From a virus: DNA of 64,000 bases. Below, piece after piece: positions 17,101-54,935 of this stretch (position 1 is the stretch's first letter; the number at the start of each line of letters is the position of its first letter). The translations under genes were made by a program, and so were the position numbers. Location of the stretch: the IMG/VR virus record IMGVR_UViG_3300036939_000074; one strand, given 5' to 3'. Under the pieces are notes generated by a model, which was not told where the DNA came from, made no database searches, and saw only the letters and a list, made by a program, of their open reading frames with translations.

Positions 17101-19591
17101 TGCCGTAGCCTACGGGATGCAATAGGAAAAGCCGACGTTCTTGGATGCCACGAGCGATCGCATTTTTCTGATGCGGCTTGAGTTGGATGGCTGAGTTGCT
17201 TCCGGGTAGCTTCAAGTAACTTCCGTCATACTGAGGGCGTAAAGGGCGGGGATAGATGCTGTTGTAAATCAGCGTCAAACGTAGGGCGCGTTCTGCATCT
17301 AGCCACAGCCACTTTTTAAACTCTTCCTTGAGTCGTTCGAGGGCAGAGTTGGCCGTAACCGTTGCCGCTTCAGATGCCTCTACGTCAATTGCATCATCAT
17401 CGTAAATTTTGATACGGAATGGCGTCATGTTCAGCGCCGCTTCCAATACCTGCAAGGCATTTTTCCCGCCTCGCTTGCCCTCAGCTCCTGTACTGGAGAA
17501 TTCCGATTTTTGGGCATATTCTTTAGGGCCATCAACACCCCACCGGGCCAGTTCCGGAATGTGCTCAACCTTATATTGACTCGCTCTGCCTCCAAATTTG
17601 TCACTACAGAACTGTTGGATATCGGAGGTTGGAATCCAAGAGGCACCAGCACCCGCGTCAATGAAGATTTCAGCATCTAGCTCACTATCAATATCCAACT
17701 TTTGTTTGAGGCCAGAAGCAATTGAAGCGCGGATTTCGGCTGTGGCTGGCGGTAAGATGAAAGAAGATATGTAAACATAGTGCCCGTCCTCATTCTTTGT
17801 AGTGAGGACTTTTTCGTTGTCGAACAACCACTTTTCGAGATACAGTTCTCCGTCTGTTTCTGCCAGTTGACGCACGGTGCGAAGTTTGGCACGAGTGTCG
17901 CCGGATAGGTATTGATATCGAGAAACCCATTCCCCTAAATCGGGGTCAAAAAAGATTTCAGAATTTTTACCCTTGAGTAGACCAATGGCGTCTTTTTCAG
18001 AGCATTCCAACAGGACAGCGATGAAGGGTAAATCAATGCGGCCACGACGGCTCAATGATTCGTGAACCGCGTCTGTTGGGACACTAATTTTTAGTGTTCC
18101 TTCTTGGCGCATGGGCGCATTAACCCGGGACGTGAGTATTTCAGCGGGTTTATACTCCCAGGTTTTTGAACCCGTCTCCGACTCGAAGCAAATTTCTTCT
18201 TCTAGCGCGCAGCAGGTTGCAACCAACTCGGAGTCGTCGGCAAATACCTTTAAGGTGCTGGGACGCTTGCGGCGGTTGAGTAAGTTGCCATACTTTTTCA
18301 CAAACAGATTGTACTGCGTCACCAGTTGGGCACGCCGCTCTTCCATATCTTCTCGGTCGTTGAGTTCGGCATCCACAAGGCTATCGAGAGCGTTTTTGAG
18401 TTCAATACCTGCGGTGATGCGCTCGGCATGTTCTGTGATATGAATGAGGCCGACGCCTCGCTGATACTGGTAGAGTTTCCCTTCTTTCAGTAGAAAGCTA
18501 CCCGGATTAAGACCAATGCAACTTTCGGGTAGGAGAACTTCTTTGAGGGCAGGGCGCTGGAAGTTGGGCAGTTCGTAAATCAGGTTGAGTTTGGCAAAGG
18601 CATTAATAATGGCAGCTTTGATATCAACCTGTTTATCCCCCGCGACGGCGATGCGGGAGTTTCCATACAGCTGGGAGTGGGACCAGGTGCCCAAAACCTT
18701 ATCGGGATTTTCGATAAAGTAACGGTTGACGCACAAGGGTTCATCATTTTCGTCGAGTATGGGAGTGGCAACCACATCTAACCAGTTGGGGTTGGGTTCT
18801 GGGGAATGGGGGCATTTCTGTAAAATGATTAAATCTGCCGTGACTTGTGTGCCAGCTTCTGCAAGCGCGGTATTGGGCAGTCTCACCGCTCCCACCAGAC
18901 GAGCGCCCTGGGCGTGGAGGTATTTGGGGAACTCAGAATCCAAGGTACCAATACTCGTAATCAGAGCCATCAGTCCACCCGATCGCAGTTTATCAAGCGA
19001 CTTAGCGAAGAAATAATTATGAAGTGTGCTGCTGGGGATGTCTTCATAATCCGGGTCGAAGGGAGGCACGAGACCAAACGGGACGTTGCCAATTACCAGA
19101 TCAAAGGTACTATTCGGGATGTCTGTAGATTCAAATCCACAGCCATAAATTGCGATCGCATCGTCAATGAGGATTTTTGCGATCGCAGAGGCGGATGAAT
19201 CGATTTCGACCAAGCACCATTCTGAGCGCGCACGGTTCCAAGTTGTCTGCAAGCCGGGGAAGAGGCCGATATTGCTTGAAGGTTCCAGGATGCGACCGTA
19301 GGAGAAGCCCAGCTGTTCTAAGACATGCCACATCGCTTCTACGATGGGGGCGGGGGTAAGGAAAGCGTTATCGCTATTGAGGTCAAGATCGGGAACCAGC
19401 TCTAAAACTTCTTTATTAATGGCAGACGCTACCGTTCCCCAACCGACCCATTTAGCTAGCAAGTCCTGATCAGCTGCGGTGATGGGGTGGGGATTTTTTT
19501 TGTAGCGACGCAGCCATTTTAAGCAAGCGATGTTGTTGTTTAGCTTAGTTTTGACCCCGCCTTTAACAGGGAGATTACGGAATTGGTACAT
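14192..19591 (-). CDS. DarB-like N6-adenine methyltransferase / SNF2-type helicase fusion
   Basis: LAKWVGWG, ILEPSSNIGLF (motif I), DLVIGNVPFG (motif IV), HPVGYGKT (Walker A), CFDELQ (DExx), QRLGRVVRQGN (motif VI). Confidence 0.85.
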   Translation of the reverse strand: MYQFRNLPVKGGVKTKLNNNIACLKWLRRYKKNPHPITAADQDLLAKWVGWGTVASAINKEVLELVPDLDLNSDNAFLTPAPIVEAMWHVLEQLGFSYGRILEPSSNIGLFPGLQTTWNRARSEWCLVEIDSSASAIAKILIDDAIAIYGCGFESTDIPNSTFDLVIGNVPFGLVPPFDPDYEDIPSSTLHNYFFAKSLDKLRSGGLMALITSIGTLDSEFPKYLHAQGARLVGAVRLPNTALAEAGTQVTADLIILQKCPHSPEPNPNWLDVVATPILDENDEPLCVNRYFIENPDKVLGTWSHSQLYGNSRIAVAGDKQVDIKAAIINAFAKLNLIYELPNFQRPALKEVLLPESCIGLNPGSFLLKEGKLYQYQRGVGLIHITEHAERITAGIELKNALDSLVDAELNDREDMEERRAQLVTQYNLFVKKYGNLLNRRKRPSTLKVFADDSELVATCCALEEEICFESETGSKTWEYKPAEILTSRVNAPMRQEGTLKISVPTDAVHESLSRRGRIDLPFIAVLLECSEKDAIGLLKGKNSEIFFDPDLGEWVSRYQYLSGDTRAKLRTVRQLAETDGELYLEKWLFDNEKVLTTKNEDGHYVYISSFILPPATAEIRASIASGLKQKLDIDSELDAEIFIDAGAGASWIPTSDIQQFCSDKFGGRASQYKVEHIPELARWGVDGPKEYAQKSEFSSTGAEGKRGGKNALQVLEAALNMTPFRIKIYDDDAIDVEASEAATVTANSALERLKEEFKKWLWLDAERALRLTLIYNSIYPRPLRPQYDGSYLKLPGSNSAIQLKPHQKNAIARGIQERRLFLLHPVGYGKTFVYCAVAMECKRLGLVDKAFISVLNDTVSQFVGQFKTLYPKAKLLIAEDGGAQTRNATLRRCQTGNYDCIILAHTAFYGIPIGWRTKVQYISEELSVIEGYLQEVDATKESLLHGDLLAHAHSLRQEIERLEVIGAIEDAGNDPQSMMPVMDDLLDKGAIRVSNSGQVKFVPKQQRLTRDEYVKLMGEKERDKTIKVLKRSLEKAVSHYCRNSIALNWEDIAKRPLICFDELQMLKNIRYPSKIAGTISGITNTDTQRSLNSLLKFNWTLRNGGRIGGGTGLFPEVSFSEMFNLLRLFAPDEIEETGNAHFDSFIGNFGEISTQPEFTSMGGIKKKTRISGFKNQDEMLDLAATFTDFAPDPEKVGIKRPQLHRYTITSPLSDEQAAINEDIKNWLKAWQKRRPPKYVHPKTGNWTNHNPLTLTSMGSAASIDPRLVKEVETVECDTKLHRLIHNAWWVWQATRETKATQFIFCNSGVPKPHNRFTVYRYIRDCMVALGVPETEVAFIHEYDAKTKQKLFDKMNNGETAMLLASTRRGGTGVNAQGVRNTWYGGAIAAHLLDLDWSPPLQRLGRVVRQGNPHDDVWAFDYGTLGAGNQPGFDAWKANLVRHRAAMAHQYASGKLESRRTQDIGDDASYYLVAAAIMSGNTAALEYAQVKDQLRQKNHTFKEQQTRLSQYRYYSESCGSVLGVLEAKYKASQVDQETVKEHGSLTGDTFSIQIGKTLTTKVQEADIVLQGKINAIIKAGKRCQHKKIGQIAGLDIVVSFFSGKSIESLDLAGVPYTHNEQTYRIFYPVSLSWVFSEKFINAIRTTLREVRHGYEVDRLSKKIDAEREHQRLLPERITYLTSEVSKLGDEVSALTAKELELRSQLDSKEDEQEAWEPGGIVEAPTPAIYTGVDETVIEWIKTLPPPPWITDIFLAQAVRLLRMQCLECSHSKTFEWFILWHQSQLQLLEVVNSLEDVFS

Positions 19592-23232: not shown

Positions 23233-23664
23233 CTAGCTTTCTTGATAAGGCAAGAAATTTCTGCCTCTTACCCATTGGGGTGGCTTGATCGCTAGGTTGA
23301 CCACGCTTTCAATACCTCGAATGCTTGGGTCGCCAGCCAAGTAGCCTATGCCACGATTAAGGTGCGCCAAAAACTGCTCGGCTAAAACCTCGTCGTTGAC
23401 GGGCAAGCCATCTTCTTTCACCCGCTGTCTAAGTGCCAGGATGAAAAGGTCACTAAAGTTGCCACCGAACGTTTTCCAGGCAATTTCTAAATTGCTGTCA
23501 GCTGGGTACCTCGTCGGGCTGGGTTTCGTCGCTTCTGCGAGTGAGAGACAAAATGCCCATCGACAAGTGATGTTGTAACTGGGGATTTTGGTGCGTCGCT
23601 TGATGGTGATTAGGTTGTAGCGCGCCTTCTCACTCAATCGGATGCGTTCAACGGGGGCTTGCAT
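23233..23664 (-). CDS. dndE: DNA phosphorothioation protein DndE (orphan)
   Basis: ERIRLSEKA..L..IKRRTKI..YNI-CRWAFCLSLAE...PADSNLEIAWKTFGG...FLAHLNRGIGYLAG, closely matching cyanobacterial DndE; start MQAP at 23664. Confidence 0.9.
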   Translation of the reverse strand: MQAPVERIRLSEKARYNLITIKRRTKIPSYNITCRWAFCLSLAEATKPSPTRYPADSNLEIAWKTFGGNFSDLFILALRQRVKEDGLPVNDEVLAEQFLAHLNRGIGYLAGDPSIRGIESVVNLAIKPPQWVRGRNFLPYQES

Positions 23665-25363
23665 GGGATTCGTCCTCTCCCGGTGGCAGCATCTCAACTC
23701 GCTTCATCGGCTGTTCTGGAGTTAATTCGATGGGTTGAGAGGTCTTTTTCTCAAGGGTAATTTTAGGAGCACTCGCCGGCTTGAGGGTTGGGACAATTTT
23801 CTTGGGCTTTTCTGGCTCTAAGGCTGGAATGCTATCTAACCCTTGAGACGGGAGTACCTTGATTTCCAGTTTGGGTTTTTCTGGCTCTAAGGCTGGGATG
23901 CTATCTAACCCTTGAGATTTGAGTACCTTGATTTCCAGTTTGGGCTTTTCTGGCTCTAGGGCTGGAATGCTATCTAATCCCTGAGAGGGGAGTACCTTAA
24001 ATTCCGGCTTGGACGGCGGGAGCGCTGGACTGTCTTTGTAGCTTGCAGGGCCAAACACTTTACTTTCTGCTGCACCAAGTTCCATTAACTCAGTTTCAAT
24101 CTCAATCGACTCTCTGATTTGGATGGGGCAATAGACCCATGAATCATCTACTACCACCCGGGTTGTGTCGAAGTAATTGAGATATTCTCCTTTGAGCTGC
24201 AACAGTTGATAAAAGGAGATGATGAGCGGTCCCCAAAAGTCTTGGTCATTCTCACTTAAAAACACCTCTGGGTCAACCGTTTCTGGATTGGGGTAAACGA
24301 ATTCGGGCATGACAAAGTAGCCCGTGAGAATAGCCGCTTTGGCGATTAGGGGGTCTCTTTGGCTCCCTGTGAGGTTGCGAGTGTAGTTAGAAGCCGCCAG
24401 CACATCGGCTGGGGTAATTTCTGGTACAAACAAAAATTGCTCGGTGTCTCTCCCTAACCCTAGGTCGGAGAACAAGACACTATGATAGCCAACCGGATTT
24501 TCAAATTCAGGTCTGTGGCAATAGCCAACTCGATTTAGGAGCCAGCCAAACCAATCGCAACTATCCCACAACAAGAAAAAAGCTGGGTTCCAGACGGCAA
24601 CCAGTCGGTTGTGGGCTTGTCCATCCCAGGAAATCTTCTTGTGTAAATGGGCTTCTAGAGTAGCAAAATCATCAACTTCACCCGGGTCATAATCTTTCTC
24701 GTCGGGGAAGTCGGTCATGCAAGGATGACCCAATGACCAGCAGCACCAATCGATCAAATATTCCGCTGCGGCAATCCCGTGCCGTTTACTCAAAGACCAG
24801 TGTTCGGTGATTTGAGAGAGCAAATACTCCAAGTATTGCTCGGTTCGTTTGTGGATTGAACCCAATGTGAGTTGGGGGATGGGTGCTTTGCAGCGCGATC
24901 GCTCGTAGTCTAGCCATCGCCCATTGCCGGATTCAATTTCAGCCTGAATTAATAATTTGAGTGCCCAGCCGGGAGTGTTGCCAATCACAACTCGGTTGGT
25001 CAGTTCTACTCCAGGTTGGTACTGAGTAAAACCATGGTCGTCAATGGATATAATGCCACGAGTCCACCCGGTGGGAGTGTAGCCGGGGCGGCGCTCAAAG
25101 CCATTTCTAGGGGCGGGGAAGGGTGTATTGTCCAGTCGATACCGGAGAGCATCTAGCGTGAGAGAATCTAGTTCCTGGATTTTCTCCTTGGTTGGGTTCG
25201 CATACAGCGGGGAATCTTTATAAATCCCAGCAACCGTCTCGCGCATCACCCACCAATTCATCGGTTCGGTAATGTTGGATGGGCGCGCATCATCCATCAT
25301 CTGGGCATACATCCAGCGGTCGTTCAATGCCGGAAGGAGTACGTCTTGTATGTTATTTTCCAT
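23648..25363 (-). CDS. Hypothetical protein, distant paralog of 20194 with C-terminal 23-aa repeats
   Basis: PIPQLTL...EYLIDWCCWSLGH...DWFGWLL...AASNYTRNLTG...GYFVMP. Confidence 0.55.
   Translation of the reverse strand: MENNIQDVLLPALNDRWMYAQMMDDARPSNITEPMNWWVMRETVAGIYKDSPLYANPTKEKIQELDSLTLDALRYRLDNTPFPAPRNGFERRPGYTPTGWTRGIISIDDHGFTQYQPGVELTNRVVIGNTPGWALKLLIQAEIESGNGRWLDYERSRCKAPIPQLTLGSIHKRTEQYLEYLLSQITEHWSLSKRHGIAAAEYLIDWCCWSLGHPCMTDFPDEKDYDPGEVDDFATLEAHLHKKISWDGQAHNRLVAVWNPAFFLLWDSCDWFGWLLNRVGYCHRPEFENPVGYHSVLFSDLGLGRDTEQFLFVPEITPADVLAASNYTRNLTGSQRDPLIAKAAILTGYFVMPEFVYPNPETVDPEVFLSENDQDFWGPLIISFYQLLQLKGEYLNYFDTTRVVVDDSWVYCPIQIRESIEIETELMELGAAESKVFGPASYKDSPALPPSKPEFKVLPSQGLDSIPALEPEKPKLEIKVLKSQGLDSIPALEPEKPKLEIKVLPSQGLDSIPALEPEKPKKIVPTLKPASAPKITLEKKTSQPIELTPEQPMKRVEMLPPGEDESHASPR
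23802..24008. repeat. 69-bp tandem repeat x3 (coding KVL-SQGLDSIPALEPEKPKLEI)
   Basis: Units at 23802, 23871, 23940. Confidence 0.9.
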
Positions 25364-43750: not shown

Positions 43751-45514
43751 TTATTGGTCAAGAGCATATAAGCCAAACAACAGATGGTCACGGTCTTGCT
43801 TGGCTTGCAGACTCAAAGATTGCCAACTGGTTAATGTCTCAGTTGCCGTCGAAATGATTTCAGAATTTCCCTCGTATAATTTAGCGCTATAGGGGCTTCT
43901 AAAATCTGATGGCCGAGCTTTTTCATAATCTCTATAAGCTGGATTGTTGGTCAGATATTTTAGTTGTACCTCTTCATTCGAGATTGCTCTATCTTTTGCG
44001 TAATTATGAGTTATTGCTGAATTATTTAGCTTAACTTCTAATACATGACCTAATTCGTGAAACATTACTGTCTTGGGGTCATGAGCAAAGCCCGTATGAA
44101 TAAAAGATTCTCCAGCTCCAGGTATATTAAAAAAATTGTCTTGATAACCTCTGTTTTGACCAATATCCTTCGTGGGGTCATCTGGTGCGACAAAACCCAC
44201 CCGCACATCTAATTCTTGCTTGGTCAATCTACCAAATAGTTGAGCAGCTTCCGTACAGTCTTGAACTCGCTGAACTACTTTTGGGTCTTCTGTTTCTAGA
44301 TGCTTCCCTGCTTTTTTAAGTAATAGAAACTCAATATATCTACTTTCAAACGGACTAAGTTGACGAATCTCAGATTCTGATTTTCCTTTATCGATCAACG
44401 AAATCACCGCTTGATACTCACGTTCTACTTTTTGTGAGTTTTTAAAATCCACTGATTCTAGTAATTGATCGATAGCAGCCCCGTAACGGAGTTCACTCTT
44501 AATAACCCCCTCGTGCCACCCAATCGAATCCTTGTCATCTTTAGATTTTTTGGGGTTTTGACGTAATGCCGTGAGTTCTAGAACCCGCTCCCTTAAAGCG
44601 TGTTTATTAAATGCTTCCCGGTTAGCCATTTGTCGATTAAGCGCTTGCCGCACAGCATCCGGGTCTATTTTTGATGTTTTAAGGGCTTCAGCCACTTTTT
44701 CGGCTAACTTAGAGCTAACTCCAAGACTCAAACTGATGGCTTTTTGAGTTGGAGTTTCCTCAGCGGCGGGAGTTTCCATCTCGTTAATTTGTTGCTCTAA
44801 CTCTTGGCTGATTTTTTTGAATCGATCGTCTTGTGTTCCCGTTTCGGCGAGCTTATCGAATAGAGCTTTTATCCGATTGGCTCCGTGGTACGCTCCGATG
44901 ACTCCTAAAGCCGCACTTCCGGCTACAAGTACCCTTAATCCTGCAAGCTCAGCTGGAGCTGAACTCAGAACTATTGCCCCTAAAACAGCGATCGCAGATT
45001 CTTCGGCAAGTGCTCCAGCAAATTTCGCTGCCGATAATGGGTCAATCGCCGCGCCCTTGGCTACATCTGGAAATTTTTTAACGGTTTGGGCGATGTCATT
45101 AGTAGCCCATTTCAATTTCATTTCCGATTGGGTTACGACATCAGGCAGGGAAGATGCAGCAGAACGATAAGCATCCCCAGCACCCTTGCCCAATAATTTT
45201 TCTAACTGCGACGCGAGATTGTTATTAAAGTCTGTAACGGGTTTGGATTGCAATGCACTCTTAAGTTTTGAGGCATTTTCGCTGATGACCTTATTAACTG
45301 AGTTCTGTAAATCCTCAACCTGACTGACGAAGTTATTCTTGGGTGATTCGGTTGTACCAGGGGATGCAAACTGCCCTCCAGGCCCCCGGGTCACCGTAAT
45401 ATCTTTGCCATCTCCAGTTTTGTGCTGCGTCTCAAAACTGCCGTTGTGTTTCTGGGCTTGCACCAGGAGCGCCAGCTTTAGAGCTTCTGCACATACTCGA
45501 ACCTGGTCACTCAT
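43751..45514 (-). CDS. Leader-family protein 3 with C-terminal HExxH zinc-metallopeptidase-like domain
   Basis: AEALKLALLVQAQ...FETQH...ITVTRGPGGQFASPG; VMFHELGHVLE; SPYSAKLYEG-SEIIS. Confidence 0.75.
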   Translation of the reverse strand: MSDQVRVCAEALKLALLVQAQKHNGSFETQHKTGDGKDITVTRGPGGQFASPGTTESPKNNFVSQVEDLQNSVNKVISENASKLKSALQSKPVTDFNNNLASQLEKLLGKGAGDAYRSAASSLPDVVTQSEMKLKWATNDIAQTVKKFPDVAKGAAIDPLSAAKFAGALAEESAIAVLGAIVLSSAPAELAGLRVLVAGSAALGVIGAYHGANRIKALFDKLAETGTQDDRFKKISQELEQQINEMETPAAEETPTQKAISLSLGVSSKLAEKVAEALKTSKIDPDAVRQALNRQMANREAFNKHALRERVLELTALRQNPKKSKDDKDSIGWHEGVIKSELRYGAAIDQLLESVDFKNSQKVEREYQAVISLIDKGKSESEIRQLSPFESRYIEFLLLKKAGKHLETEDPKVVQRVQDCTEAAQLFGRLTKQELDVRVGFVAPDDPTKDIGQNRGYQDNFFNIPGAGESFIHTGFAHDPKTVMFHELGHVLEVKLNNSAITHNYAKDRAISNEEVQLKYLTNNPAYRDYEKARPSDFRSPYSAKLYEGNSEIISTATETLTSWQSLSLQAKQDRDHLLFGLYALDQ

Positions 45515-45582: not shown

Positions 45583-45939
45583 TTAACGAATTGCCCCTTC
45601 CGGTGGTGGCGGGTCTGGGAGCCGAAGCTTTGGCTCATCGTTTACTTTAATATTCCACGGTGAGGGAAATTGCTGTAGGACATATTCCACGTTGTTGAAA
45701 TCTGAGTAGCCCCACTTCCCCGACTTCAGGCCATCCATCAGTCTGCCATTGCTGCCAATTGCAGGTAGTCCGACATAGTAATAAATGAATTCGGTGACTT
45801 CCTTACTATCTTTATCCAAAAACAGCTCTATCTGAATTTGCGCTATCTGAGCCGTGGTTTCTAATTTGTCCCCTTGCATCGGGGTCAACGTAATTTCGCA
45901 AATTTTTTTTGAACCCAGTTTCACCGTGAAACCGCTCAT
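45583..45939 (-). CDS. Hypothetical protein
   Basis: 118-aa ORF with GAGGA upstream. Confidence 0.6.
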   Translation of the reverse strand: MSGFTVKLGSKKICEITLTPMQGDKLETTAQIAQIQIELFLDKDSKEVTEFIYYYVGLPAIGSNGRLMDGLKSGKWGYSDFNNVEYVLQQFPSPWNIKVNDEPKLRLPDPPPPEGAIR

Positions 45940-46613: not shown

Positions 46614-46823
46614 CTAGTCGTCAACGATTGCATAGTCTTCGTGACGAACAAACAAAACCTTGCCGTCAGGAGTTTTAACTTGCAAGGCGTTATCGCTAGC
46701 TGGTGTAATCTCTTCGCCAATTACGCTTCCTGATGGATAATCGCAATTGGGCTGATAACCCCTACCTGCATAGCGTAAAAACGCACCTTCTTGAGATAGA
46801 TTTACCGCAGCTTTGATGGCCAT
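46614..46823 (-). CDS. Small hypothetical protein
   Basis: 69-aa ORF with AAGGA upstream. Confidence 0.5.
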   Translation of the reverse strand: MAIKAAVNLSQEGAFLRYAGRGYQPNCDYPSGSVIGEEITPASDNALQVKTPDGKVLFVRHEDYAIVDD

Positions 46824-46850: not shown

Positions 46851-46930
46851 GGCTGTGCGCCAGCCCTGATAGGGATTACTTGGTGTCTTCGGGAGCGTAT
46901 GTATGAGTCGCCACTAACCTAATAGGAATT
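46851..46930 (-). CRISPR. Degenerate CRISPR-repeat-like unit(s), not a canonical array
   Basis: Minus strand ACACCAAGTAATCCCTATCAGGG (46864-46886) and AATTCCTATTAGG (46918-46930) resemble the AATCCCTAT(T/C)AGGGATTGAAAC core I recall from cyanobacterial type I-D repeats. Confidence 0.4.
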
Positions 46931-46967: not shown

Positions 46968-48137
46968 TTAAAGAAACCCCAATGTTTGCAGCGCTTTTTG
47001 GAGGTACTGCACATTAGAGGTGCTCTCCTTGGGTAGCACTTCGCAGACATACAAGGGATTGCCCATCGCCTTTAATCCGTGCCGCATCACAGAAGACTCT
47101 ATGGAGCCAAGCGGCTTAACATTGTGCATCCGAATCAGGACATTTAAAACACTCAGAATCCGCTCCGCATCTTCCTCTGTCCCTGACCCCTTGCATCCAA
47201 AATGCATCAGCCAGTCGGGGAATAGTTCAATTTCGTAAGCGTGAGTTATGGCATGAGGAACGACGGAGGGAGAGACTAATGCTTTCTTGCCCACAACGGC
47301 AATCTCACAAGCTTTTTTGATAGCCCAGAACATCGGCATTAACTGCATGGGCAGCTGTGACTCAATTGGAACATTTGAATAGACCCAAACTTTCTCATGT
47401 TTGTAATCGCTGCCAAACATAACAGCGCGAAGGGTCAACTCTTTTTGCCATTGAGGCAACACACAGGCTTTAAGCGCTGATGAACCCAATGACCGACGAT
47501 TGCTGTAACATTGCACCCTGTAGGGTGAACCCGAAGCAGAAGCAACAGACGCCGGCTTACCCGTGATTGCACAGACGGAACGTATCCCCTCGCCTCTTTT
47601 TGAGCGCTGTTTGGCATGAGTGTAGTTATTGAGTTCCTCCGTAAACGAGATATCTGCTGATATCTCTTTAGGTTTGGAGTTGAGATGGGGTTGAAGGTAA
47701 TCGGCCAGCTCAACCAATTTGGCTTTATCCAGCCCTTCGGCTTCCTCCACCTTGGCAAACAGCAGCCAGTAGCCCAATTTTAATCCGCCTGATTGAATTT
47801 CAAGTTCATCTGGGGATATCAGCGGGTACTTTTGGAGCAGCGCCTCTTCAAATACCTCTGCATTTGGGGCGAGGCTCCGCAGGAATATGGCAAAATCTGC
47901 GAAGCGATCGCACCAAATAGATGCGGGGATGCTTTGCCCTATCTTAGCTAAACGGGCTGGGGCGTAAGAGTTTTTGTAGGCCATCACTTTGGCAATGACC
48001 GACTCAATGACAGTTGTTAGGGGAAGTTCACAGAACGACTCAGGAGCTGTTAAGCCTTTCCCATGACGCTCAATCGCGTCTGAAATAACAATCGCTTGCT
48101 GTTGTTCGCTTAAAAATTCAGTTAGTAGGGCAAACAT
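46968..48137 (-). CDS. cas10d: Truncated Cas10d/Csc3 (type I-D large subunit) homolog lacking the HD domain
   Basis: Collinear motifs ERHGKGL, CDRFADF, EIQSGG...GYW, FTEELNNY..AK...CAIT, QCYSNR..LG...W..ELTLR, GKKALVSPSVVP match the middle of cyanobacterial Cas10d as I recall it. Confidence 0.78.
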   Translation of the reverse strand: MFALLTEFLSEQQQAIVISDAIERHGKGLTAPESFCELPLTTVIESVIAKVMAYKNSYAPARLAKIGQSIPASIWCDRFADFAIFLRSLAPNAEVFEEALLQKYPLISPDELEIQSGGLKLGYWLLFAKVEEAEGLDKAKLVELADYLQPHLNSKPKEISADISFTEELNNYTHAKQRSKRGEGIRSVCAITGKPASVASASGSPYRVQCYSNRRSLGSSALKACVLPQWQKELTLRAVMFGSDYKHEKVWVYSNVPIESQLPMQLMPMFWAIKKACEIAVVGKKALVSPSVVPHAITHAYEIELFPDWLMHFGCKGSGTEEDAERILSVLNVLIRMHNVKPLGSIESSVMRHGLKAMGNPLYVCEVLPKESTSNVQYLQKALQTLGFL

Positions 48138-48727
48138 AGACCCTCCAGCTGATGGTAGGCGAGTTTGTAGCGATCGCTTAGGTGGGTCTCGACTTCTTGC
48201 AGTAGTTCTTTTTCAAACTCACCGACAACAGCTTCTAGCTCCTGGCGGTGAGTTTCATACAGCTGACCGACCAAGACTTGGTCGGGGATTTCCAAAAACA
48301 ACTCTAAAGTGTAAACCCGCAAGTCTTGGGTTTGAGCCTTCATGCCCTTGGCATTGTAGACAAGTTGCCTCATATTGTCCTCGCCCGGATCAACGTCACC
48401 TGGGGCAATGATGGCAAAACCAATGCCGTGCTGGACAAACAAACTGGCGAGCTGGGGGCAAAACAGCTCAATTTTTTGCGTGAGATGGTTAAAGGATTTA
48501 TCGGGATACTCCGACCATGCAATCGCCGTCAACAACCGAGACTTAAACCCTAATAGGTCAAAGATTTCGCCATAATAGGACTCGGATAATTCAATTAATT
48601 CAACCATGCCCGCCATGTTGGATTTTTCTACAATACTGCGGAGTAAACGAACATCTTTTTGCAAGTCTCGGTTTTTTTGCCGAGCCGCAAGGAGGGCTAG
48701 TTTCAAACCATTAGTTTTATCTGACAT
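48122..48727 (-). CDS. Hypothetical protein, overlapping both neighbours
   Basis: 201-aa ORF with short overlaps on each side. Confidence 0.65.
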   Translation of the reverse strand: MSDKTNGLKLALLAARQKNRDLQKDVRLLRSIVEKSNMAGMVELIELSESYYGEIFDLLGFKSRLLTAIAWSEYPDKSFNHLTQKIELFCPQLASLFVQHGIGFAIIAPGDVDPGEDNMRQLVYNAKGMKAQTQDLRVYTLELFLEIPDQVLVGQLYETHRQELEAVVGEFEKELLQEVETHLSDRYKLAYHQLEGLCLPY

Positions 48728-49052
48728 ACAAAAATTCCTGTTCTACTCGCTGCCAAAATCCAGGGTTCTCATTGCAGGCGGGTTGATAGGTAGCGCTCTC
48801 TTCACAAAGCGCCAAGCCGATACCCTGCCCTTGATACTCACTCTTGACTTCAATCGCCACGCACAAAAAGTCTCTGTCGCGGGTCAAGAAGCCGACGATG
48901 GGCATATCCTCTCGGCTCTCATCTACGGCTAGCCAACAGCGAGCAATGTTGGTCTCATCCCAGTCGTCCCACCAAAGGTCAAAACCATTCAGCTCACTCA
49001 GCCACGGCTGAAGCTCTGCGTATTCGTACTCAACAATACTGATATTTTTCAT
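48717..49052 (-). CDS. Minimal GNAT-family acetyltransferase
   Basis: IEVKSEYQGQGIGLAL (acetyl-CoA motif A), NENPGFW. Confidence 0.7.
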   Translation of the reverse strand: MKNISIVEYEYAELQPWLSELNGFDLWWDDWDETNIARCWLAVDESREDMPIVGFLTRDRDFLCVAIEVKSEYQGQGIGLALCEESATYQPACNENPGFWQRVEQEFLYVR

Positions 49053-49346: not shown

Positions 49347-50198
49347 TTAATAACCCCATTCGTCTTCTGGGTAACCTGTCGGTGGTTCCACATCGGTGAC
49401 GCCATTGCATATATCCGGATCTTCTTCCAATCCCCCACAAACTAAGTAAAGAGCTTTCATGAGTGGTATAGCTGCTCTTTCTTCCTGAGTTAGCGGCTGG
49501 GCTTTCCCCATCGCATTAGGGTCATAGTTAAGTTGGCCCTGAACAACAGCGATGTGAGAATGAAACCTCGCGACTTCACCTTCAATATCAAATTCATAGG
49601 CATAGACTTGATGAGTGGAAGATACTTCATAGTACTCAGGATTTTGCCACTCTCCTGTCATATCCCGCTCGAAGTGCAACGCATCCCAATCAATCCACGT
49701 CCTAGTTTTTTGATGGGCTAGCACGGCTGACGTGATTAGGGTTCTATTCTTTTTAATCCATTGGTCTTTTAAACTGTAAATGAGTGAAACGGTTTTCTGG
49801 TTGCCGTGTGAGGCAAATTTGTATTTAGGAAAGGATTTAGCGTATCGATTCAAGTATCGAATTAAGTGTAATAGTGCTTTGGCTTCAGAGGAAAACTCTT
49901 GGCTGTATTCTTTAAATTGGGTAACAGCGAGTTGAATCCTATTCCTCCTTTCCAGTTCTTGCTGTTCTATTGCCTGTTTCTTCCTTAATCGCTTTATTGC
50001 GTTGTAGCCCGGTATATCTTTCAGCCGCTTCACCCTGATAGCGTGATGCTCTTTTCGTAAACTCTCTATAAGAGGAATTGCCAGCTCTCTAGTCCCTGTC
50101 TTGATTTGAAGCAAAATGTTTAAATCTGTGGCGGTTTCATTGACTTCCATCAGTCTGACATAGCCATCGAAAAAACCAATGTATTTGGAGCGTTCCAT
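49347..50198 (-). CDS. Hypothetical protein
   Basis: 283-aa ORF. Confidence 0.65.
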   Translation of the reverse strand: MERSKYIGFFDGYVRLMEVNETATDLNILLQIKTGTRELAIPLIESLRKEHHAIRVKRLKDIPGYNAIKRLRKKQAIEQQELERRNRIQLAVTQFKEYSQEFSSEAKALLHLIRYLNRYAKSFPKYKFASHGNQKTVSLIYSLKDQWIKKNRTLITSAVLAHQKTRTWIDWDALHFERDMTGEWQNPEYYEVSSTHQVYAYEFDIEGEVARFHSHIAVVQGQLNYDPNAMGKAQPLTQEERAAIPLMKALYLVCGGLEEDPDICNGVTDVEPPTGYPEDEWGY

Positions 50199-50200
50199 TT

Positions 50201-50938
50201 TTAGTTACCGACCAACACTTCTTCTTTGTTGAGGGGGCAAGGCGCTTCTAGGTATGTTTTTAACCGGGTGTAAGCTGCATTAACTTCTGTAAACTTTGCA
50301 GCATTACCGCCTCGGTCGGGATGATGTTTGAGGGACATTCTTCGGTAAGCTGTTTTTAGCTCTGCGAGGGTGTACTGCTGCCGAGACAAGCCTAGAGTTT
50401 GGTAGTCGGCGTGCGCGCCCAGCCTTGGTGCTTGGTTCTTTTGATGATTGTGGTTGCTACTTCCTGATTTTTGGCTGTAATGATCGCCTTGGTGATTACT
50501 ACTTCCTGATTTTTGGTTATTTTTGCGCTTACTTCCGGGGGTTGCTGGCGGCTTTTTCCCCCAGTATGTGCGACTCTCCATAATTACCTTTTCCGTGGCG
50601 TCCGAGGGTGTTTTGCACCAACGAGTCCAAAGCCGCTTATCATCCAATGTCGGGTGCAGATTCCAGTGACTGATTTCCCCAACACGGATAATACATGTCC
50701 AATCACGACCAACACAAAAGATGAATCCGCGTCTCATCTTTTCTGGTTTGGTCGTGTCAAACACTTCATACAGATACTCAGGGGTTTTGGAGTAATTTGC
50801 CCAAAAGCGGGTTTTGATGTCGTTAACAGTTTCCTCATGGCAAGGATGCACAGGTTCACCATGAATTGCAATCAGCCGTATCTCAGCTCTGTAGCCTTGA
50901 CGGGCATAGTACATCGTTTCCTTCAAATTTTTTCTCAT
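50201..50938 (-). CDS. Protein with C-terminal DnaJ (J) domain
   Basis: YQTLGL...LKTAYRRMSLKHHPDRGG...F-EVNAAY--L. Confidence 0.85.
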   Translation of the reverse strand: MRKNLKETMYYARQGYRAEIRLIAIHGEPVHPCHEETVNDIKTRFWANYSKTPEYLYEVFDTTKPEKMRRGFIFCVGRDWTCIIRVGEISHWNLHPTLDDKRLWTRWCKTPSDATEKVIMESRTYWGKKPPATPGSKRKNNQKSGSSNHQGDHYSQKSGSSNHNHQKNQAPRLGAHADYQTLGLSRQQYTLAELKTAYRRMSLKHHPDRGGNAAKFTEVNAAYTRLKTYLEAPCPLNKEEVLVGN

Positions 50939-50940
50939 CT

Positions 50941-51312
50941 CTATCCCCGGCTTAACACAGACATGATGTACTGATTCAAGCTCACATTTTCCGCCCTGGC
51001 TTTTTCGGTCAGACGACGATGCAAACTTTTAGGTATCCGTACAAGCAACCTACCACTGTAGGTATCGTCGGTACTGGGTAAGGGAATGTCATCTCCATTT
51101 TCGTAGGCAGTCTCAACCCACAGCTGCCTTGCCTCATTGATGTTTGCGATCGCTTCATCTAACGTTTCAGCTTGGGTGAGGCATCCCTGTAGCTCCTTGA
51201 TTTCGACCACATACCCTGATTCCGGGTCGGGATAAAGCGTAATTGGGTATTTCACCTCCAAGTAATATGCCAATGGCTTTCTGCTGTCTTGGTTCATCTT
51301 TTTACGACTCAA
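50941..51312 (-). CDS. hicB: HicB family antitoxin (orphan)
   Basis: GYVVEIKELQGCLTQAETLDEAI...IPLP; YSGRLLVRIPKSLHRRL...ENVSLNQY RHH domain. Confidence 0.9.
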   Translation of the reverse strand: MSRKKMNQDSRKPLAYYLEVKYPITLYPDPESGYVVEIKELQGCLTQAETLDEAIANINEARQLWVETAYENGDDIPLPSTDDTYSGRLLVRIPKSLHRRLTEKARAENVSLNQYIMSVLSRG

Positions 51313-51331
51313 TGTTTTTCTCGTTGGTCAA

Positions 51332-51351
51332 TAGTATCGCATATGATACTA
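51332..51351. promoter_or_regulatory. Inverted repeat upstream of hicB (candidate operator)
   Basis: tagtatc-gcatat-gatacta. Confidence 0.5.
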
Positions 51352-51432
51352 CTTCCGGAATTATTTGCCGGAAAAATTGATGAACCAATAAGGTCAATTT
51401 TGGGAACCATTGGTTCCCGGTTAGGTCTGTTG

Positions 51433-51447
51433 GCGCACTAAGTGCGC
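51433..51447. repeat. Dispersed palindrome copy 7
   Basis: Extends to ttggcgcactaagtgcgccaa (51430-51450). Confidence 0.9.
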
Positions 51448-51521
51448 CAATTTGCTTACAAGGGTCAAGACCTTTCTCCTCAACGGTTTCAAGAATTTTA
51501 AGGGTGCTGTACTTACAAGGG

Positions 51522-54500
51522 TCAACGAGTGCTTTGCCGCAACTGCTCCAAAATTGTGCGCTCTTCCGGCGTGAGTTGAGCGATCGCTTGAGAGTAAAGC
51601 TCAACGCCCACTCGCTTTTTGAGGTCAATTAGACGACGAATCATTTCCGAGTGAGTGAGTTCGGTGTGTTTCCACAAAATGCCTGCCGTGAGTTCGCATT
51701 GCACCTGTATCAATTGCCGCTGAGAGTCGGATAGGGGGGTTGTAACCGAAACCGGTGCCGTTGTAACCGACTTCTCGGCACAACTGGTTACAGGTTCCAA
51801 TGGTTGCTGGGTAAGGGGTTGAGCATCTCGTGTAACCGCTGACACCGTGTAACCGGAATTTGGGGTGCTCCCCTCTATAGGAGAAGAATGAACTGAATTA
51901 AAAGAAGGGTTACTTTTCTCTTCTATTACCTCTTTATTTTCAGTTACATGGTTACAACTACTACTTAAGGAGGCTGTATCCATTGAGAATAGGTCGTTTT
52001 CAGGTGTAACTAACTCATGGTTACACTCAGTTACATCAGTTACACCAAATAATTGAGCGGGAATGAGCCACGCCTTGCGCGGGATGGTTTCGGGTGGATT
52101 GGGTAGAACCTCCACACCGTCCACCATGCGCGGCACGATGAGGGCGCGTTCATAGGCTAAGACCTGGTCCTGGGATCTCGCAAAGCGAACGGTGGTATCG
52201 ACAACGCCCCCCAACTTGATCACCAGTGGCTTCAGTGCCTTTAAGTTGTAGGTCGCCGGTTTAAAGCGACGATCCACCAGATTCCAGGCGTCGGCTGTGT
52301 AGATAGCGACGTAGTGGCAGCCACCGCGTTCAACATGGCGCTTGAGATTCCAGTCGCCTACCTTTGATTCCGATTCCAGGGCTAAAAGTTTCTCGACGAA
52401 ATCTTGTAAGGAGTCGCCGGAGGAATCAGCATCGTTCTCGGAAGAGCATAGGTTGTCAATCACCCAACTCTTCATGTCCTCCAGGCCGCCTGTCAGGTCG
52501 ATCACCTTCTGGGCATACCAGGTGACGATAGCTAAGCTCTGAGCGATTCTGGCATGGGCTAAGGGGAGACGCGGGAGTAACTCAGCCTCAAGAGACGCGA
52601 TCGCCTCTTTAGGGCAGCCCAGTTTCAACAGCTGGGGGAATGCACCAGAGGCTTTGGCTTGGGCTACCTTAAGTTCCTGGAATGATGCCTTGCTGCCTTC
52701 GGAGGCGCGTTCAAAGGGCAGACGGATGAAGCGGGTATAGGTTGCCGCTTGGTCACCCCCAAATACGTGATTGGACGTGATGCCCATGGGTGCGTGAGGC
52801 ACCTGTTCGTTGCCCCGAACCTTACGCGGCTTCCAGTTATACCAATTCTTGGCAAGTTCTTCCGTCTCCGGATTGCGCTCTGGGTCGTCCCAGAAGAAGG
52901 GCAAGCTGCCCGTTCGGCAACCGTGTTCGTAGAGGGCGGAAGTACTCACTCGTGCCAGCATTCCCACCTGGGGCCAGTTGGTGCCTACTAAGGAGAGAGC
53001 GGTTTCAGCGGCGAGTGTTTTGCAGCTGCCCGGTTCTCCATGGGAGTTAAGAAGGGGGAAAGAGCTATCACTATTGAAAATTTCCTGAGAGTGTAATCCC
53101 GCCGCCACCCACCCGATCGCCAGTAAGACTTGATAGATGTTCTTACTACCAAAGAATTTACGGGAGCCTGCAATGAGTCGGGAGAGCGCCTCTGGATCTT
53201 CAGGGGCAAGCTCTGGGCAGGGGATAAAGTCGTCTTTCCCTAGGGAGGGGTTAAAGACCCAACCTGACTCATTCTCGTCGGTTAGGTTACCTTCCTTGGT
53301 ATACTGGCGATCGCGGAAGACCCACACGCCATCCACTTGTTGCCCATAGCGGTCGATTCGTTTGAATACCTTACCTTGTCGGGTGGTACGATATTCATGC
53401 AGGCGCACATTGAATAGCGCTTGCAGTTGATTGCGGGATAAGTTACAGACAATTCCCACCCCCAACGCCTTCTTCATGGCATCAATGAAAGTATCAACCT
53501 TTGTGTAATCGGTGGAGTTGAGGATTACTCTTTGCTGGTGACTCTCGAAAGATCGTTTGACTTGGAGCACCAAAGCACCGCCAAAATCATCCTGAATTTC
53601 CCGCTCTACGACAAAATCAAAGTTACACAAGGGTTGCCAAACTTTACGGACTTCTTCCCCCTTGCCGACCATAATCCATTCGCCAATTTCCCCCATGTAT
53701 GACATTGGAGCCTTCCAGGCACTGCGTTGCCAGCGATATTGATTTTCCTCTTCTTCTTCGTCAATCGCTTGCTCGATCGCATTTTCGAGCTGACGGTACA
53801 TTTGTTCGTCGGGGACACCTGCACCCTGGATGTAATCAATCCAATCTTTGGCATCTCCCTTCTCCGGCATTTCGGGCCATAAAATCAGCGGGTTAATCGC
53901 GACCGCTGTCACTTTTTGCTGATGACAGGCTTTGAGTAAAGCCGCTGCACTATCTCTCCCAGTCTTGTCATTATCGGCCCAAATTACCAGCAGCGGCTTA
54001 AGCCCAGAGTCGTCGTTAGACAAGCCGGGTTCTTCGTCGAGCTGCTCATAATTGAAGCTAAAGGCGTCTTTTAAGCCTTTGGCAATCCAAGGGAACCCCC
54101 CTTCACCGCCTTGGTTGCAAGTGGCAACGAGGCCAATGCTACGGATGGATTCAACTGCCGATTCTCCCCCTACGGCAAACACAATCCCACGATTTTTTAG
54201 GGTTTCAACCGCTTCATCCTGACGGTATAACGGCCAAGGGTCTCCCCCTTTCCCGATCTTCCAATCCCCTCCCTCGGTCTGCCAGTACGGGCGTACCAAT
54301 TTGGTTTGCTTGCCATAGGCTGGACGGCGATCGCTCCACTGAGTGCGGACGACTTTTTGATTAGGTGAGTACTGATACTCGATAAATTGCTCTTTGGCCC
54401 CTGTTTTGGGGTCGTGGGTGACAATTTCGGCAATCTCCGTCATGGGCACCTCTAAGATGCCTACCCCTAAAGAGTCTTTGAGTTTGAGCTTGACGGCTAA

Positions 54501-54935
54501 ATAATGTTGGCCTTGTTTCTGTTTGCTAAAAATTTGATGCACAACATACAAGCTATCGGCACCGCCGGGATTACCACTTTGTAGGCGAACGACATGGTCT
54601 TTGCCTAATTCCTTCAAGCTAATCTTTAAATCGCTGTACGTGGGAGCTGCGATTTCTGTTCGGGGGTGGAACTGGATTTGCTTGGGGTATTTTTTACTTT
54701 TACGCGGCTTGTGATGAATGCCATCGGTGCTGGCAAAGATGCTGCGCCCATCCTTGGCAAGTCCTGCATACTTCCAACCTTCCGGGACAAGAAGGGCGTC
54801 CGTCCATTGACAGACAACCTTGTAGGTTTTCCCAGCTTCATCCTTAATTAGGCCGCAATAGCGATCTTTGGAGCACAAGGGGCAGCAGTCTTGCGACGAA
54901 GCTTCTATAATGGGATTTTTAGTTGCGATCGCCAC
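51522..54935 (-). CDS. Replication primase-helicase (Zn-finger, TOPRIM, P-loop ATPase)
   Basis: CPLC...C...C; GGESAV...WADNDKTG (TOPRIM); HGEPGSCKT and FFWDD (Walker A/B); GTG start after AGGGAGG. Confidence 0.8.
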   Translation of the reverse strand: MAIATKNPIIEASSQDCCPLCSKDRYCGLIKDEAGKTYKVVCQWTDALLVPEGWKYAGLAKDGRSIFASTDGIHHKPRKSKKYPKQIQFHPRTEIAAPTYSDLKISLKELGKDHVVRLQSGNPGGADSLYVVHQIFSKQKQGQHYLAVKLKLKDSLGVGILEVPMTEIAEIVTHDPKTGAKEQFIEYQYSPNQKVVRTQWSDRRPAYGKQTKLVRPYWQTEGGDWKIGKGGDPWPLYRQDEAVETLKNRGIVFAVGGESAVESIRSIGLVATCNQGGEGGFPWIAKGLKDAFSFNYEQLDEEPGLSNDDSGLKPLLVIWADNDKTGRDSAAALLKACHQQKVTAVAINPLILWPEMPEKGDAKDWIDYIQGAGVPDEQMYRQLENAIEQAIDEEEEENQYRWQRSAWKAPMSYMGEIGEWIMVGKGEEVRKVWQPLCNFDFVVEREIQDDFGGALVLQVKRSFESHQQRVILNSTDYTKVDTFIDAMKKALGVGIVCNLSRNQLQALFNVRLHEYRTTRQGKVFKRIDRYGQQVDGVWVFRDRQYTKEGNLTDENESGWVFNPSLGKDDFIPCPELAPEDPEALSRLIAGSRKFFGSKNIYQVLLAIGWVAAGLHSQEIFNSDSSFPLLNSHGEPGSCKTLAAETALSLVGTNWPQVGMLARVSTSALYEHGCRTGSLPFFWDDPERNPETEELAKNWYNWKPRKVRGNEQVPHAPMGITSNHVFGGDQAATYTRFIRLPFERASEGSKASFQELKVAQAKASGAFPQLLKLGCPKEAIASLEAELLPRLPLAHARIAQSLAIVTWYAQKVIDLTGGLEDMKSWVIDNLCSSENDADSSGDSLQDFVEKLLALESESKVGDWNLKRHVERGGCHYVAIYTADAWNLVDRRFKPATYNLKALKPLVIKLGGVVDTTVRFARSQDQVLAYERALIVPRMVDGVEVLPNPPETIPRKAWLIPAQLFGVTDVTECNHELVTPENDLFSMDTASLSSSCNHVTENKEVIEEKSNPSFNSVHSSPIEGSTPNSGYTVSAVTRDAQPLTQQPLEPVTSCAEKSVTTAPVSVTTPLSDSQRQLIQVQCELTAGILWKHTELTHSEMIRRLIDLKKRVGVELYSQAIAQLTPEERTILEQLRQSTR

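Follow-up and report, generated by a model that had tools for sequence, protein, structure and literature searches.

The stretch of DNA analysed here (the window) comprises 64,000 nucleotides of the IMG/VR virus record IMGVR_UViG_3300036939_000074, that is, 64 kb of a ~68.5-kb contig of which ~4.5 kb lies outside. The element is a tailed phage-plasmid of biocrust cyanobacteria. On its minus strand it carries a gene that we term Cas10dL, for its likeness to Cas10d (Csc3), the large subunit of the type I-D CRISPR effector complex (Cascade). The gene, and the residues by which it can be compared with Cas10d, including those that align with readers of the protospacer adjacent motif (PAM), are as follows.

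46968..48137, minus strand: Cas10dL (P0001), a Cas10d-like gene encoding a type I-D large-subunit core; ATG start, 389 amino acids
48057..48059, minus strand: codon of K27 (GKGL motif), which aligns with Cas10d K326, the PAM-sensing lysine finger
47766..47795, minus strand: Cas10dL residues 115-124 (Q-S-G-G-x-x-x-G-Y-W), which align with the Cas10d glycine loop Q431-Y440
47484..47516, minus strand: Cas10dL residues 208-218 (V-Q-C-Y-S-N-R-R-S-L-G), where sequence similarity to Cas10d (Q-Q-Y-S-N-K-N-x-L-G) is strongest

Cas10dL and the middle part of Cas10d

A first-pass annotation, made from the letters of this DNA, had quoted six motifs from the 389-residue open reading frame (ORF) and set them beside motifs of Cas10d. 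Indeed, the frame contains all six in that order, and the Cas10d counterparts are genuine, being present both in chain I of Protein Data Bank (PDB) entry 7SBA and in Synechocystis-type Cas10d genes from cyanobacterial genomes. Searches with the single sequence recovered little else than close relatives: a same-length family 52-84% identical to Cas10dL, plus one partial protein at 34-35%. Similarly, a phmmer search of 1.8 billion representatives returned the small family itself, with full Cas10d absent. No match was found in Pfam, nor, by tblastn, among 50,697 records of phages and 72,556 of plasmids; scanning IMG/VR and 185,579 species genomes with degenerate patterns found no relatives.

Profile searches of the kind that the annotation had proposed gave significant matches to Cas10d. 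The NCBIfam model cas_Csc3 (TIGR03174) matched residues 130-252 with an E-value of 3.6e-7, covering profile positions 447-572 of 946, at a score below its curated cut-off (28.6 versus 60 bits). Four PADLOC Cas10d models matched the same stretch, the best being Cas10_Id (E = 1.5e-11). When the profile of the Cas10dL family was compared with the PDB, the sole match was Cas10d in 7SBA chain I (E = 9e-18, query residues 23-251 on 322-600), and hhalign of the family against ten Synechocystis-type Cas10d proteins gave a probability of 99.2% and an E-value of 7.7e-20 over 228 columns, at 28% identity.

Structural superposition, also suggested at the outset, led to the same protein. The AlphaFold2 model of Cas10dL (predicted local distance difference test score, pLDDT, 75.6) had structural matches to Cas10d/Csc3 only. 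Foldseek against the PDB retrieved Cas10d (E = 5.2e-10), and VIA-align placed 339 residues of the model (1-389) onto Cas10d 305-826 with a Z-score of 12.7, the next, unrelated match standing at Z = 4.1. The ESM Atlas gave a template modelling (TM) score of 0.70 to a cyanobacterial Cas10d/Csc3 cluster, and a search of the AlphaFold DB matched Cas10d/Csc3 residues 320-827 (E = 3.8e-10). Structural identity between the two proteins is 16-17%. The C-terminal third of Cas10dL (254-389) is collinear with Cas10d by structure alone, its comparison by sequence being non-significant (E = 0.2). Cas10dL is a true but remote homologue of the middle part of type I-D Cas10d.

Set against Cas10d of Synechocystis PCC 6803 (7SBA/7SBB, TIGR03174), residues 22-253 of Cas10dL are collinear in their motifs with 317-596, and the fold is collinear up to ~826. 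Cas10dL therefore spans the equivalents of Cas10d residues ~305-826 of ~975, with ~130 residues of internal deletions, and its 389 amino acids compare with ~975-1100 for Cas10d. Both terminal losses reported in the first-pass annotation were borne out. At the N-terminus, roughly the first 300 residues of Cas10d are absent, Cas10dL beginning at Cas10d ~305, and a Pfam search for an HD domain was negative; in Cas10d this Cas3'' HD domain acts as the nuclease and is probably where Cas3' docks (PMC10212523). At the C-terminus, the structural alignment stops at ~826 and no residues are left for a tail. The Cas10d C-terminus builds the minor filament together with Cas11d (PMC10212523). Cas11d is also translated from the C-terminal, Cas11-like domain of Cas10d, and it is that domain which is missing from Cas10dL.

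The part that is kept includes the region facing the PAM. K27, the equivalent of K326, is conserved in all five full-length members of the Cas10dL family; in Cas10d, the substitutions K326A/P abolish binding of double-stranded DNA by I-D Cascade (PMC9123187). The glycine loop Q431-Y440 of Cas10d, defined like the lysine finger by cryo-EM, wedges into the PAM minor groove (PMC9123187). In the corresponding stretch, G117, G118, G122, Y123 and W124 are invariant across the family, as are Y211, S212 and N213 further along. The equivalents of Q431 and G433 are kept; that of Y437 is a leucine in most members. As judged from these alignments, the homologous core retains the PAM-recognition elements of Cas10d, the lysine finger and the glycine loop, though mostly not the Y437 equivalent. 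The conservation of PAM-reading residues suggests that a hybrid complex, or Cas10dL itself, still faces DNA.

In an unrooted tree built from the region in common, a clade with 100/100 support united the five mobile-element proteins on a very long branch of their own (length 5.3), outside both cyanobacterial Cas10d clades. Since the tree is unrooted, the donor clade of Cas10dL cannot be named. The two cyanobacterial clades (L012-L052) are distinct from one another, one having long frames of ~1100 amino acids and the other being the shorter Synechocystis type of ~975. By motifs and profile scores the Cas10dL family is closer to the shorter type; the long clade has G-K-G-M and lacks the QxGG...GWY loop motif, and the Cas10dL profile detects the Synechocystis-type clade only. 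In a sample of 401 cyanobacterial genomes, this profile matched exclusively inside full-length Cas10d genes, and hence no chromosomal solo copy was found in that sample. Cas10d was present in 68 of the 401 genomes and Csc1/Cas5d in 86. As a separate observation, a 252-amino-acid class of Csc1 with the N-terminus M-S-T-I-P-F occurs in genomes without a TIGR03174 match (G207, G042, G367, G021 and others; L055, L061, L062, L065), and could represent a variant system with a different large subunit.

Cas10dL had been described as solitary, and this holds for the window: a PADLOC scan of its 68 ORFs gave no cas family beyond the Cas10d matches of this one frame. A complete cas operon elsewhere on the element, a point that the annotation had singled out for checking, was not seen within the 64 kb. 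A search of the window for CRISPR-like arrays found none, a search for the I-D repeat core with up to three mismatches gave nothing above chance, and no tRNA gene or Rfam family was found there. Genuine cyanobacterial loci (L053/L054 among them) have the order cas3'-cas10d-cas7d-cas5d-cas6-cas4-cas1 and arrays of 25-40 repeats; Cas10dL, unlike Cas10d, lies outside any cas operon. One further proposal, that of a degenerate I-D repeat 3' of Cas10dL, found little support. The hairpin concerned (TAATCCC-TATC-AGGG, 46866-46880, minus strand) resembles the TAATCCCG...CGGG core of I-D repeats, and has a 7-mer and a 4-bp hairpin in common with the real repeats with which it was compared (Synechocystis, G175 and G135). 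It gave no I-D core match within three mismatches, is without the ACTGAAAC handle, sits in a lineage-specific insertion together with a 69-amino-acid ORF, and is absent from the closest relative, contig L001. The likeness is probably due to chance.

The mini-GNAT, p201 and Cas10dL cassette

Cas10dL is accompanied by two upstream genes, with which it forms a cassette inside a longer minus-strand gene string.

48717..49052, minus strand: mini-GNAT, first gene of the cassette, 111 amino acids, with an acetyl-CoA-type Q-G-Q-G-I-G motif (Pfam, sub-cut-off)
48122..48727, minus strand: p201, the partner gene, 201 amino acids, which has 16 nucleotides in common with the start of Cas10dL
46614..46823, minus strand: p69, a lineage-specific ORF of 69 amino acids that separates Cas10dL from the terminator and is missing in L001
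46554..46573, minus strand: intrinsic-terminator-like hairpin and T run, closing the gene string
49347..54935, minus strand: upstream genes of the same strand (a Toprim/primase-like protein of 1137 amino acids, a HicB-like protein, a DnaJ-domain protein and p283), which are backbone, outside the cassette

In four lineages the arrangement is identical, a mini-GNAT of 111-122 amino acids being followed by p201, with the 16-nucleotide overlap, and then by Cas10dL. p201 itself was encountered only beside Cas10dL, in 4 clusters among 5.8 billion protein clusters. In a fifth lineage (L003:2572-3852, 426 amino acids) Cas10dL is joined in frame to residues 1-37 of p201, the other ~165 of which are deleted. 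By Rosetta-stone reasoning, this natural fusion hints that p201 and Cas10dL work together. Similarity searches with p201 against Pfam, PHROG, PADLOC, the PDB and Cas10d found nothing, its fold prediction was unusable (pLDDT 40), and Atlas feature and structure searches returned sub-threshold rows only. We also considered p201 as the missing HD domain; this idea was unsupported, the p201 profile having given nothing against either the PDB or Cas10d.

The 111-residue mini-GNAT protein scored 22.5 bits with Acetyltransf_7 (cut-off 27) and 20.5 bits with Acetyltransf_1 (cut-off 20.7); both families match all five mini-GNAT orthologues, with a best E-value of 3.4e-5, and the Q-G-Q-G-I-G motif is invariant. 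Identity between the cassettes is 66-87%, and more distant homologues carry GNAT names in their source databases. The wider family, of 100-116 amino acids, occurs in accessory regions of other mobile elements (L085, L086 and L087), with one member on a contig of Nostoc sp. LPT. DnaJ-domain, KilA-N and RusA genes lie nearby, and none of these members is found with Cas10dL.

Cas10dL is under purifying selection. The ratio of non-synonymous to synonymous substitution rates (dN/dS) of Cas10dL is 0.14 in comparison with L001, where the protein is 84% identical, and 0.08-0.16 in deeper unsaturated pairs; for the partners the values are 0.26 (p201) and 0.15 (mini-GNAT). The length of Cas10dL is held at 389-396 amino acids among members only 52-57% identical. 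These results bear directly on whether the gene is a decaying, functionless remnant of a cas10d acquired by chance. Cas10d fragments and pseudogenes do occur in cyanobacterial genomes (for example in G201 and G315, with stop codons). However, all five lineages, some only 52% identical, have an intact frame of constant length, conservation extends to the partner gene and the gene overlap, and the family is found on unrelated backbones. In addition, homologues 52-84% identical exclude assembly artefacts of one sequence. We therefore rejected this explanation on dN/dS and regard it as very improbable indeed, in agreement with the first-pass annotation, which had suggested the dN/dS analysis and argued that the gene was no relic.

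Comparison with L001 further indicates how the cassette moves. Between the two elements the backbone is nearly identical (ParA 100%, ParB 99% and primase 98%), and the genes immediately upstream of the cassette (49347..54935) are 94-98% identical, with synonymous divergence (dS) of 0.06-0.16. Since the cassette genes have dS values of 0.33-0.62 against 0.02-0.16 for backbone genes, the cassette has been exchanged as one unit between near-identical phages. In L001 the same terminator-like hairpin stands directly 3' of Cas10dL. Three other contigs (L003, L007 and L008) have the cassette alone in common with the window, except that L007 also has a DarB-like gene, located directly upstream of the cassette; in L008 a helix-turn-helix (HTH) gene occupies the upstream position. 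The window's own cassette has replication genes and the HicB-like and DnaJ genes as neighbours. Such mobility is typical of counter-defence genes, and the context as a whole (a mobile cassette, exchange as a unit, and DarB-like and HTH neighbours in relatives) fits an anti-defence gene.

A predicted Cas-derived anti-CRISPR

We predict that Cas10dL is a Cas-derived anti-CRISPR, a defective large subunit resembling AcrIB3 and AcrIB4 but directed at type I-D, and consider this prediction, the likeliest of those weighed here, about as apt to prove right as wrong. A decoy or dominant-negative subunit of host I-D Cascade had also been suggested in the first-pass annotation. In the mechanism that we infer, the ancestor would be a cyanobacterial type I-D large subunit (Cas10d/Csc3) captured long ago by mobile elements. 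Lost since are its Cas3'' HD nuclease, the presumed dock of the Cas3' helicase, and its Cas11-like domain, where the minor filament starts. The cassette travels on phage-plasmids and other cyanobacterial mobile elements, and Cas10dL would be expressed early, from the replication-gene string. The protein would compete with host Cas10d for the backbone of Cas5d, Cas7d and CRISPR RNA (crRNA), taking a place beside Cas5d at the crRNA 5' end. The resulting complex may find PAMs, yet would be unable to nick DNA or to recruit Cas3', and would be without the domain that helps to stabilise the R-loop. Since Cas10dL has neither the nuclease and Cas3'-docking domain nor the starter of the minor filament, any Cascade incorporating it should be incapable of destroying DNA. 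That Cas10dL binds Cascade, inhibits interference and is expressed early is what we infer, as is any part played by p201 or the GNAT. When Cas10dL was modelled in complex with a genuine Cas5d, that of the Synechocystis-type I-D locus of G175, the score was 0.50 versus 0.37 for the best control, a difference under the required margin.

The closest precedents come from Listeria. AcrIB3, a Cas5 homologue, and AcrIB4, a homologue of the Cas8b C-terminal domain, assemble into a defective type I-B Cascade (bioRxiv 10.1101/2023.06.24.545427). Like them, Cas10dL is a homologue of a Cas subunit on a mobile element, forms a diverged clade of its own, as theirs is reported to be relative to Cas5 and Cas8b, and has no array or cas operon in the window. 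Like AcrIB4 in particular, it derives from part of a large subunit, although AcrIB4 keeps the Cas11-like C-terminus and Cas10dL the complementary core. The differences are also clear. AcrIB3 and AcrIB4 act on type I-B, are 38% identical to their Cas parent and have been proven experimentally, whereas Cas10dL has a type I-D parent; moreover, complexes containing AcrIB3 or AcrIB4 fail to bind DNA, whereas Cas10dL retains PAM-reading residues. In the same study, Katz et al. catalogued 358 orphan viral cas genes by tblastn, in a text that mentions neither I-D nor Cas10 (bioRxiv 10.1101/2023.06.24.545427). Because its likeness to Cas10d is visible to profiles and structure only, Cas10dL would go unnoticed in a tblastn screen with a threshold of E = 1e-4.

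Other inhibitors share the target or the expected outcome. AcrID1 (SIRV3 gp02) acts on the same system and at the same Cas10d position as is presumed for Cas10dL. It is a 13-kDa dimer from an archaeal virus, unrelated to Cas proteins, which binds Cas10d and obstructs the non-target strand's route; Cas10dL would instead replace Cas10d, and in bacteria. AcrID1 was the only type I-D inhibitor known to a 2023 review (PMC10212523), and our full-text literature search found no bacterial or cyanophage I-D inhibitor. With inhibitors of the AcrIF3/AcrIE1 type the expected outcome would be the same, in that Cascade may bind while a nuclease-helicase of the Cas3 type is not recruited. Those inhibitors bind the Cas3 nuclease itself, whereas with Cas10dL the docking domain would be absent from the complex. 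AcrIF3 has been described as a mimic of Cas8f (bioRxiv 10.1101/2023.06.24.545427).

Several observations weigh against the anti-CRISPR prediction. Cas10d identity is low (~28% over 228 columns, 16-17% structurally), and the interfaces with Cas5d and Cas7d may therefore be gone. The conserved PAM lysine and glycine loop, which would be superfluous in a pure poison of assembly, hint at a DNA-facing role. A simple decoy does not explain why Cas10dL is strictly coupled to p201 and accompanied by a GNAT, and no known acr or aca gene was found in the window's cassette. Defence genes likewise cluster in variable cassettes on mobile elements. Finally, the host is named only as a biocrust cyanobacterium, and its possession of a Synechocystis-type I-D system is an assumption.

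The conserved PAM-reading residues could be accommodated if the element were to re-equip the host's I-D Cascade by means of Cas10dL, p201 and the mini-acetyltransferase, making of it either a non-cutting DNA binder or a platform for delivery of a modifying enzyme; we give this general idea only a small chance. In the non-cutting form, a nuclease-less but PAM-competent subunit would be swapped into host Cascade to yield a DNA binder that silences or marks targets on behalf of the element. Competing elements or the host's cas genes might serve as targets, by a logic comparable to that of the nuclease-free Cascades of type IV or of CRISPR-associated transposons (CAST). Consistent with this, both the PAM lysine and the glycine loop have been preserved under purifying selection, the parts lost are exactly the two for cleavage and Cas3' recruitment, and a plasmid lifestyle with ParAB implies long coexistence with a CRISPR-bearing host. 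However, no CRISPR array, mini-array or I-D repeat was found on the element in the 64-kb window, the repeat-like hairpin downstream is not conserved in L001, the gene has no linked effector (a transposase or DinG, for instance), and loss of the Cas11-like domain should weaken R-loops. We think a take-over of this kind unlikely.

In a further alternative, Cas10dL, with p201, would be an adaptor: attached to Cascade or to PAM-bound DNA, it would recruit the mini-GNAT for the acetylation of a Cas protein, for instance at the PAM lysine of host Cas10d. The mini-GNAT is the first cassette gene in all five lineages and the best conserved of the three. A precedent exists in AcrVA5, a small GNAT whose acetylation of a key Cas12a lysine blocks PAM recognition (PMC9114340), and PAM reading in type I-D hinges on one lysine, K326 (PMC9123187). 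AcrVA5 and the mini-GNAT are alike by description, both being very small GNAT-type proteins on mobile elements in a (putative) anti-CRISPR locus. Nevertheless, the mini-GNAT family is found without Cas10dL on other mobile elements and so can do without this partner, its GNAT matches score under the Pfam cut-offs, and the sole physical link among the three proteins is the p201-Cas10dL fusion in L003. An adaptor seems to us improbable. If either form of re-equipment were correct, a virus would be seen to seize an adaptive immune effector for its own use instead of blocking it, which would be new.

The cassette might also serve defence or exclusion, with a DNA sensor derived from Cas10d, the GNAT as toxic effector and a regulatory or antitoxin role for p201. 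Toxins of the GNAT type are known from toxin-antitoxin systems (TacT/AtaT), with ~160 amino acids, and defence cassettes of mobile elements swap as units in variable regions in the same way; the window also holds an orphan DndE and other candidate-defence matches in PADLOC. On the other hand, no PADLOC defence model matches the GNAT or p201, and the mini-GNAT, at 111 amino acids, is smaller than those toxins. Furthermore, the cassette stands in an early/replication gene string and, in L007, beside a DarB-like anti-restriction gene, and the documented orphan viral Cas homologues with a tested function are all CRISPR antagonists (bioRxiv 10.1101/2023.06.24.545427). A defence module is accordingly, in our judgement, a doubtful alternative to the anti-CRISPR.

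A viral Cas homologue that acts as an anti-CRISPR is of a known kind; what is new is the type I-D parent, the derivation from the core of a large subunit instead of from Cas5 or the Cas11-like tail, the occurrence in Cyanobacteria and the coupling to a mini-GNAT and p201. Cyanobacteria have type I-D as their characteristic CRISPR system, which is also under development as a genome-editing tool. If the anti-CRISPR prediction is true, the principle that viruses turn cas genes into anti-CRISPRs would extend to a new subtype and a new phylum, and such genes would be seen to diverge past the reach of BLAST, so that screens by sequence undercount them. Cas10dL would also provide a natural minimal Cas10d, a PAM-reading core of 389 amino acids that could help to dissect assembly, PAM reading and Cas3' recruitment, and possibly an off-switch.

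The phage-plasmid and its other genes

The remaining features that characterise the element are as follows.

Window: major capsid protein of HK97/SU10 type (Atlas score 0.98, TM 0.71)
Window: tail-fibre-like protein
Window: match to the "minor head protein and DNA pilot" family
Window: ParA and ParB
14192-19591: DarB-like methyltransferase-helicase, 1799 amino acids

No integrase was found among the 68 ORFs in the Pfam scan, nor among the best 25 of 41 PHROG families. The HIP1 octamer GCGATCGC occurs at 33 sites versus 0.69 expected, distributed along the entire window, which points strongly to prolonged residence in a HIP1-rich cyanobacterium, and DNA of the element occurs in biocrust and soil metagenomes. 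Both findings agree with the earlier description of the element as a cyanophage, for which phage-plasmid is the more precise term.

The window also contains an orphan DndE (23233-23697; Pfam E = 1.5e-34), a DUF488 gene, an SNase-like nuclease and a biotinyl-domain protein. Together with the DarB-like gene, these fit a remark in the first-pass annotation that the element holds many single-gene pieces of host systems. PADLOC candidate-defence matches were to PDC-M45B/C and PDC-M19A.

A second variable locus lies 3' of the cassette, where the order is p69, p118 (45583-45939) and then a hypervariable gene of 587 amino acids (43751-45514). The latter is 69% identical at the amino acid level to its counterpart in L001 (12115-13875), with a dS of 1.04. 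Beside its copy of this gene, L001 has an extra 606-amino-acid class-I tRNA-synthetase-like gene, which the window is without.

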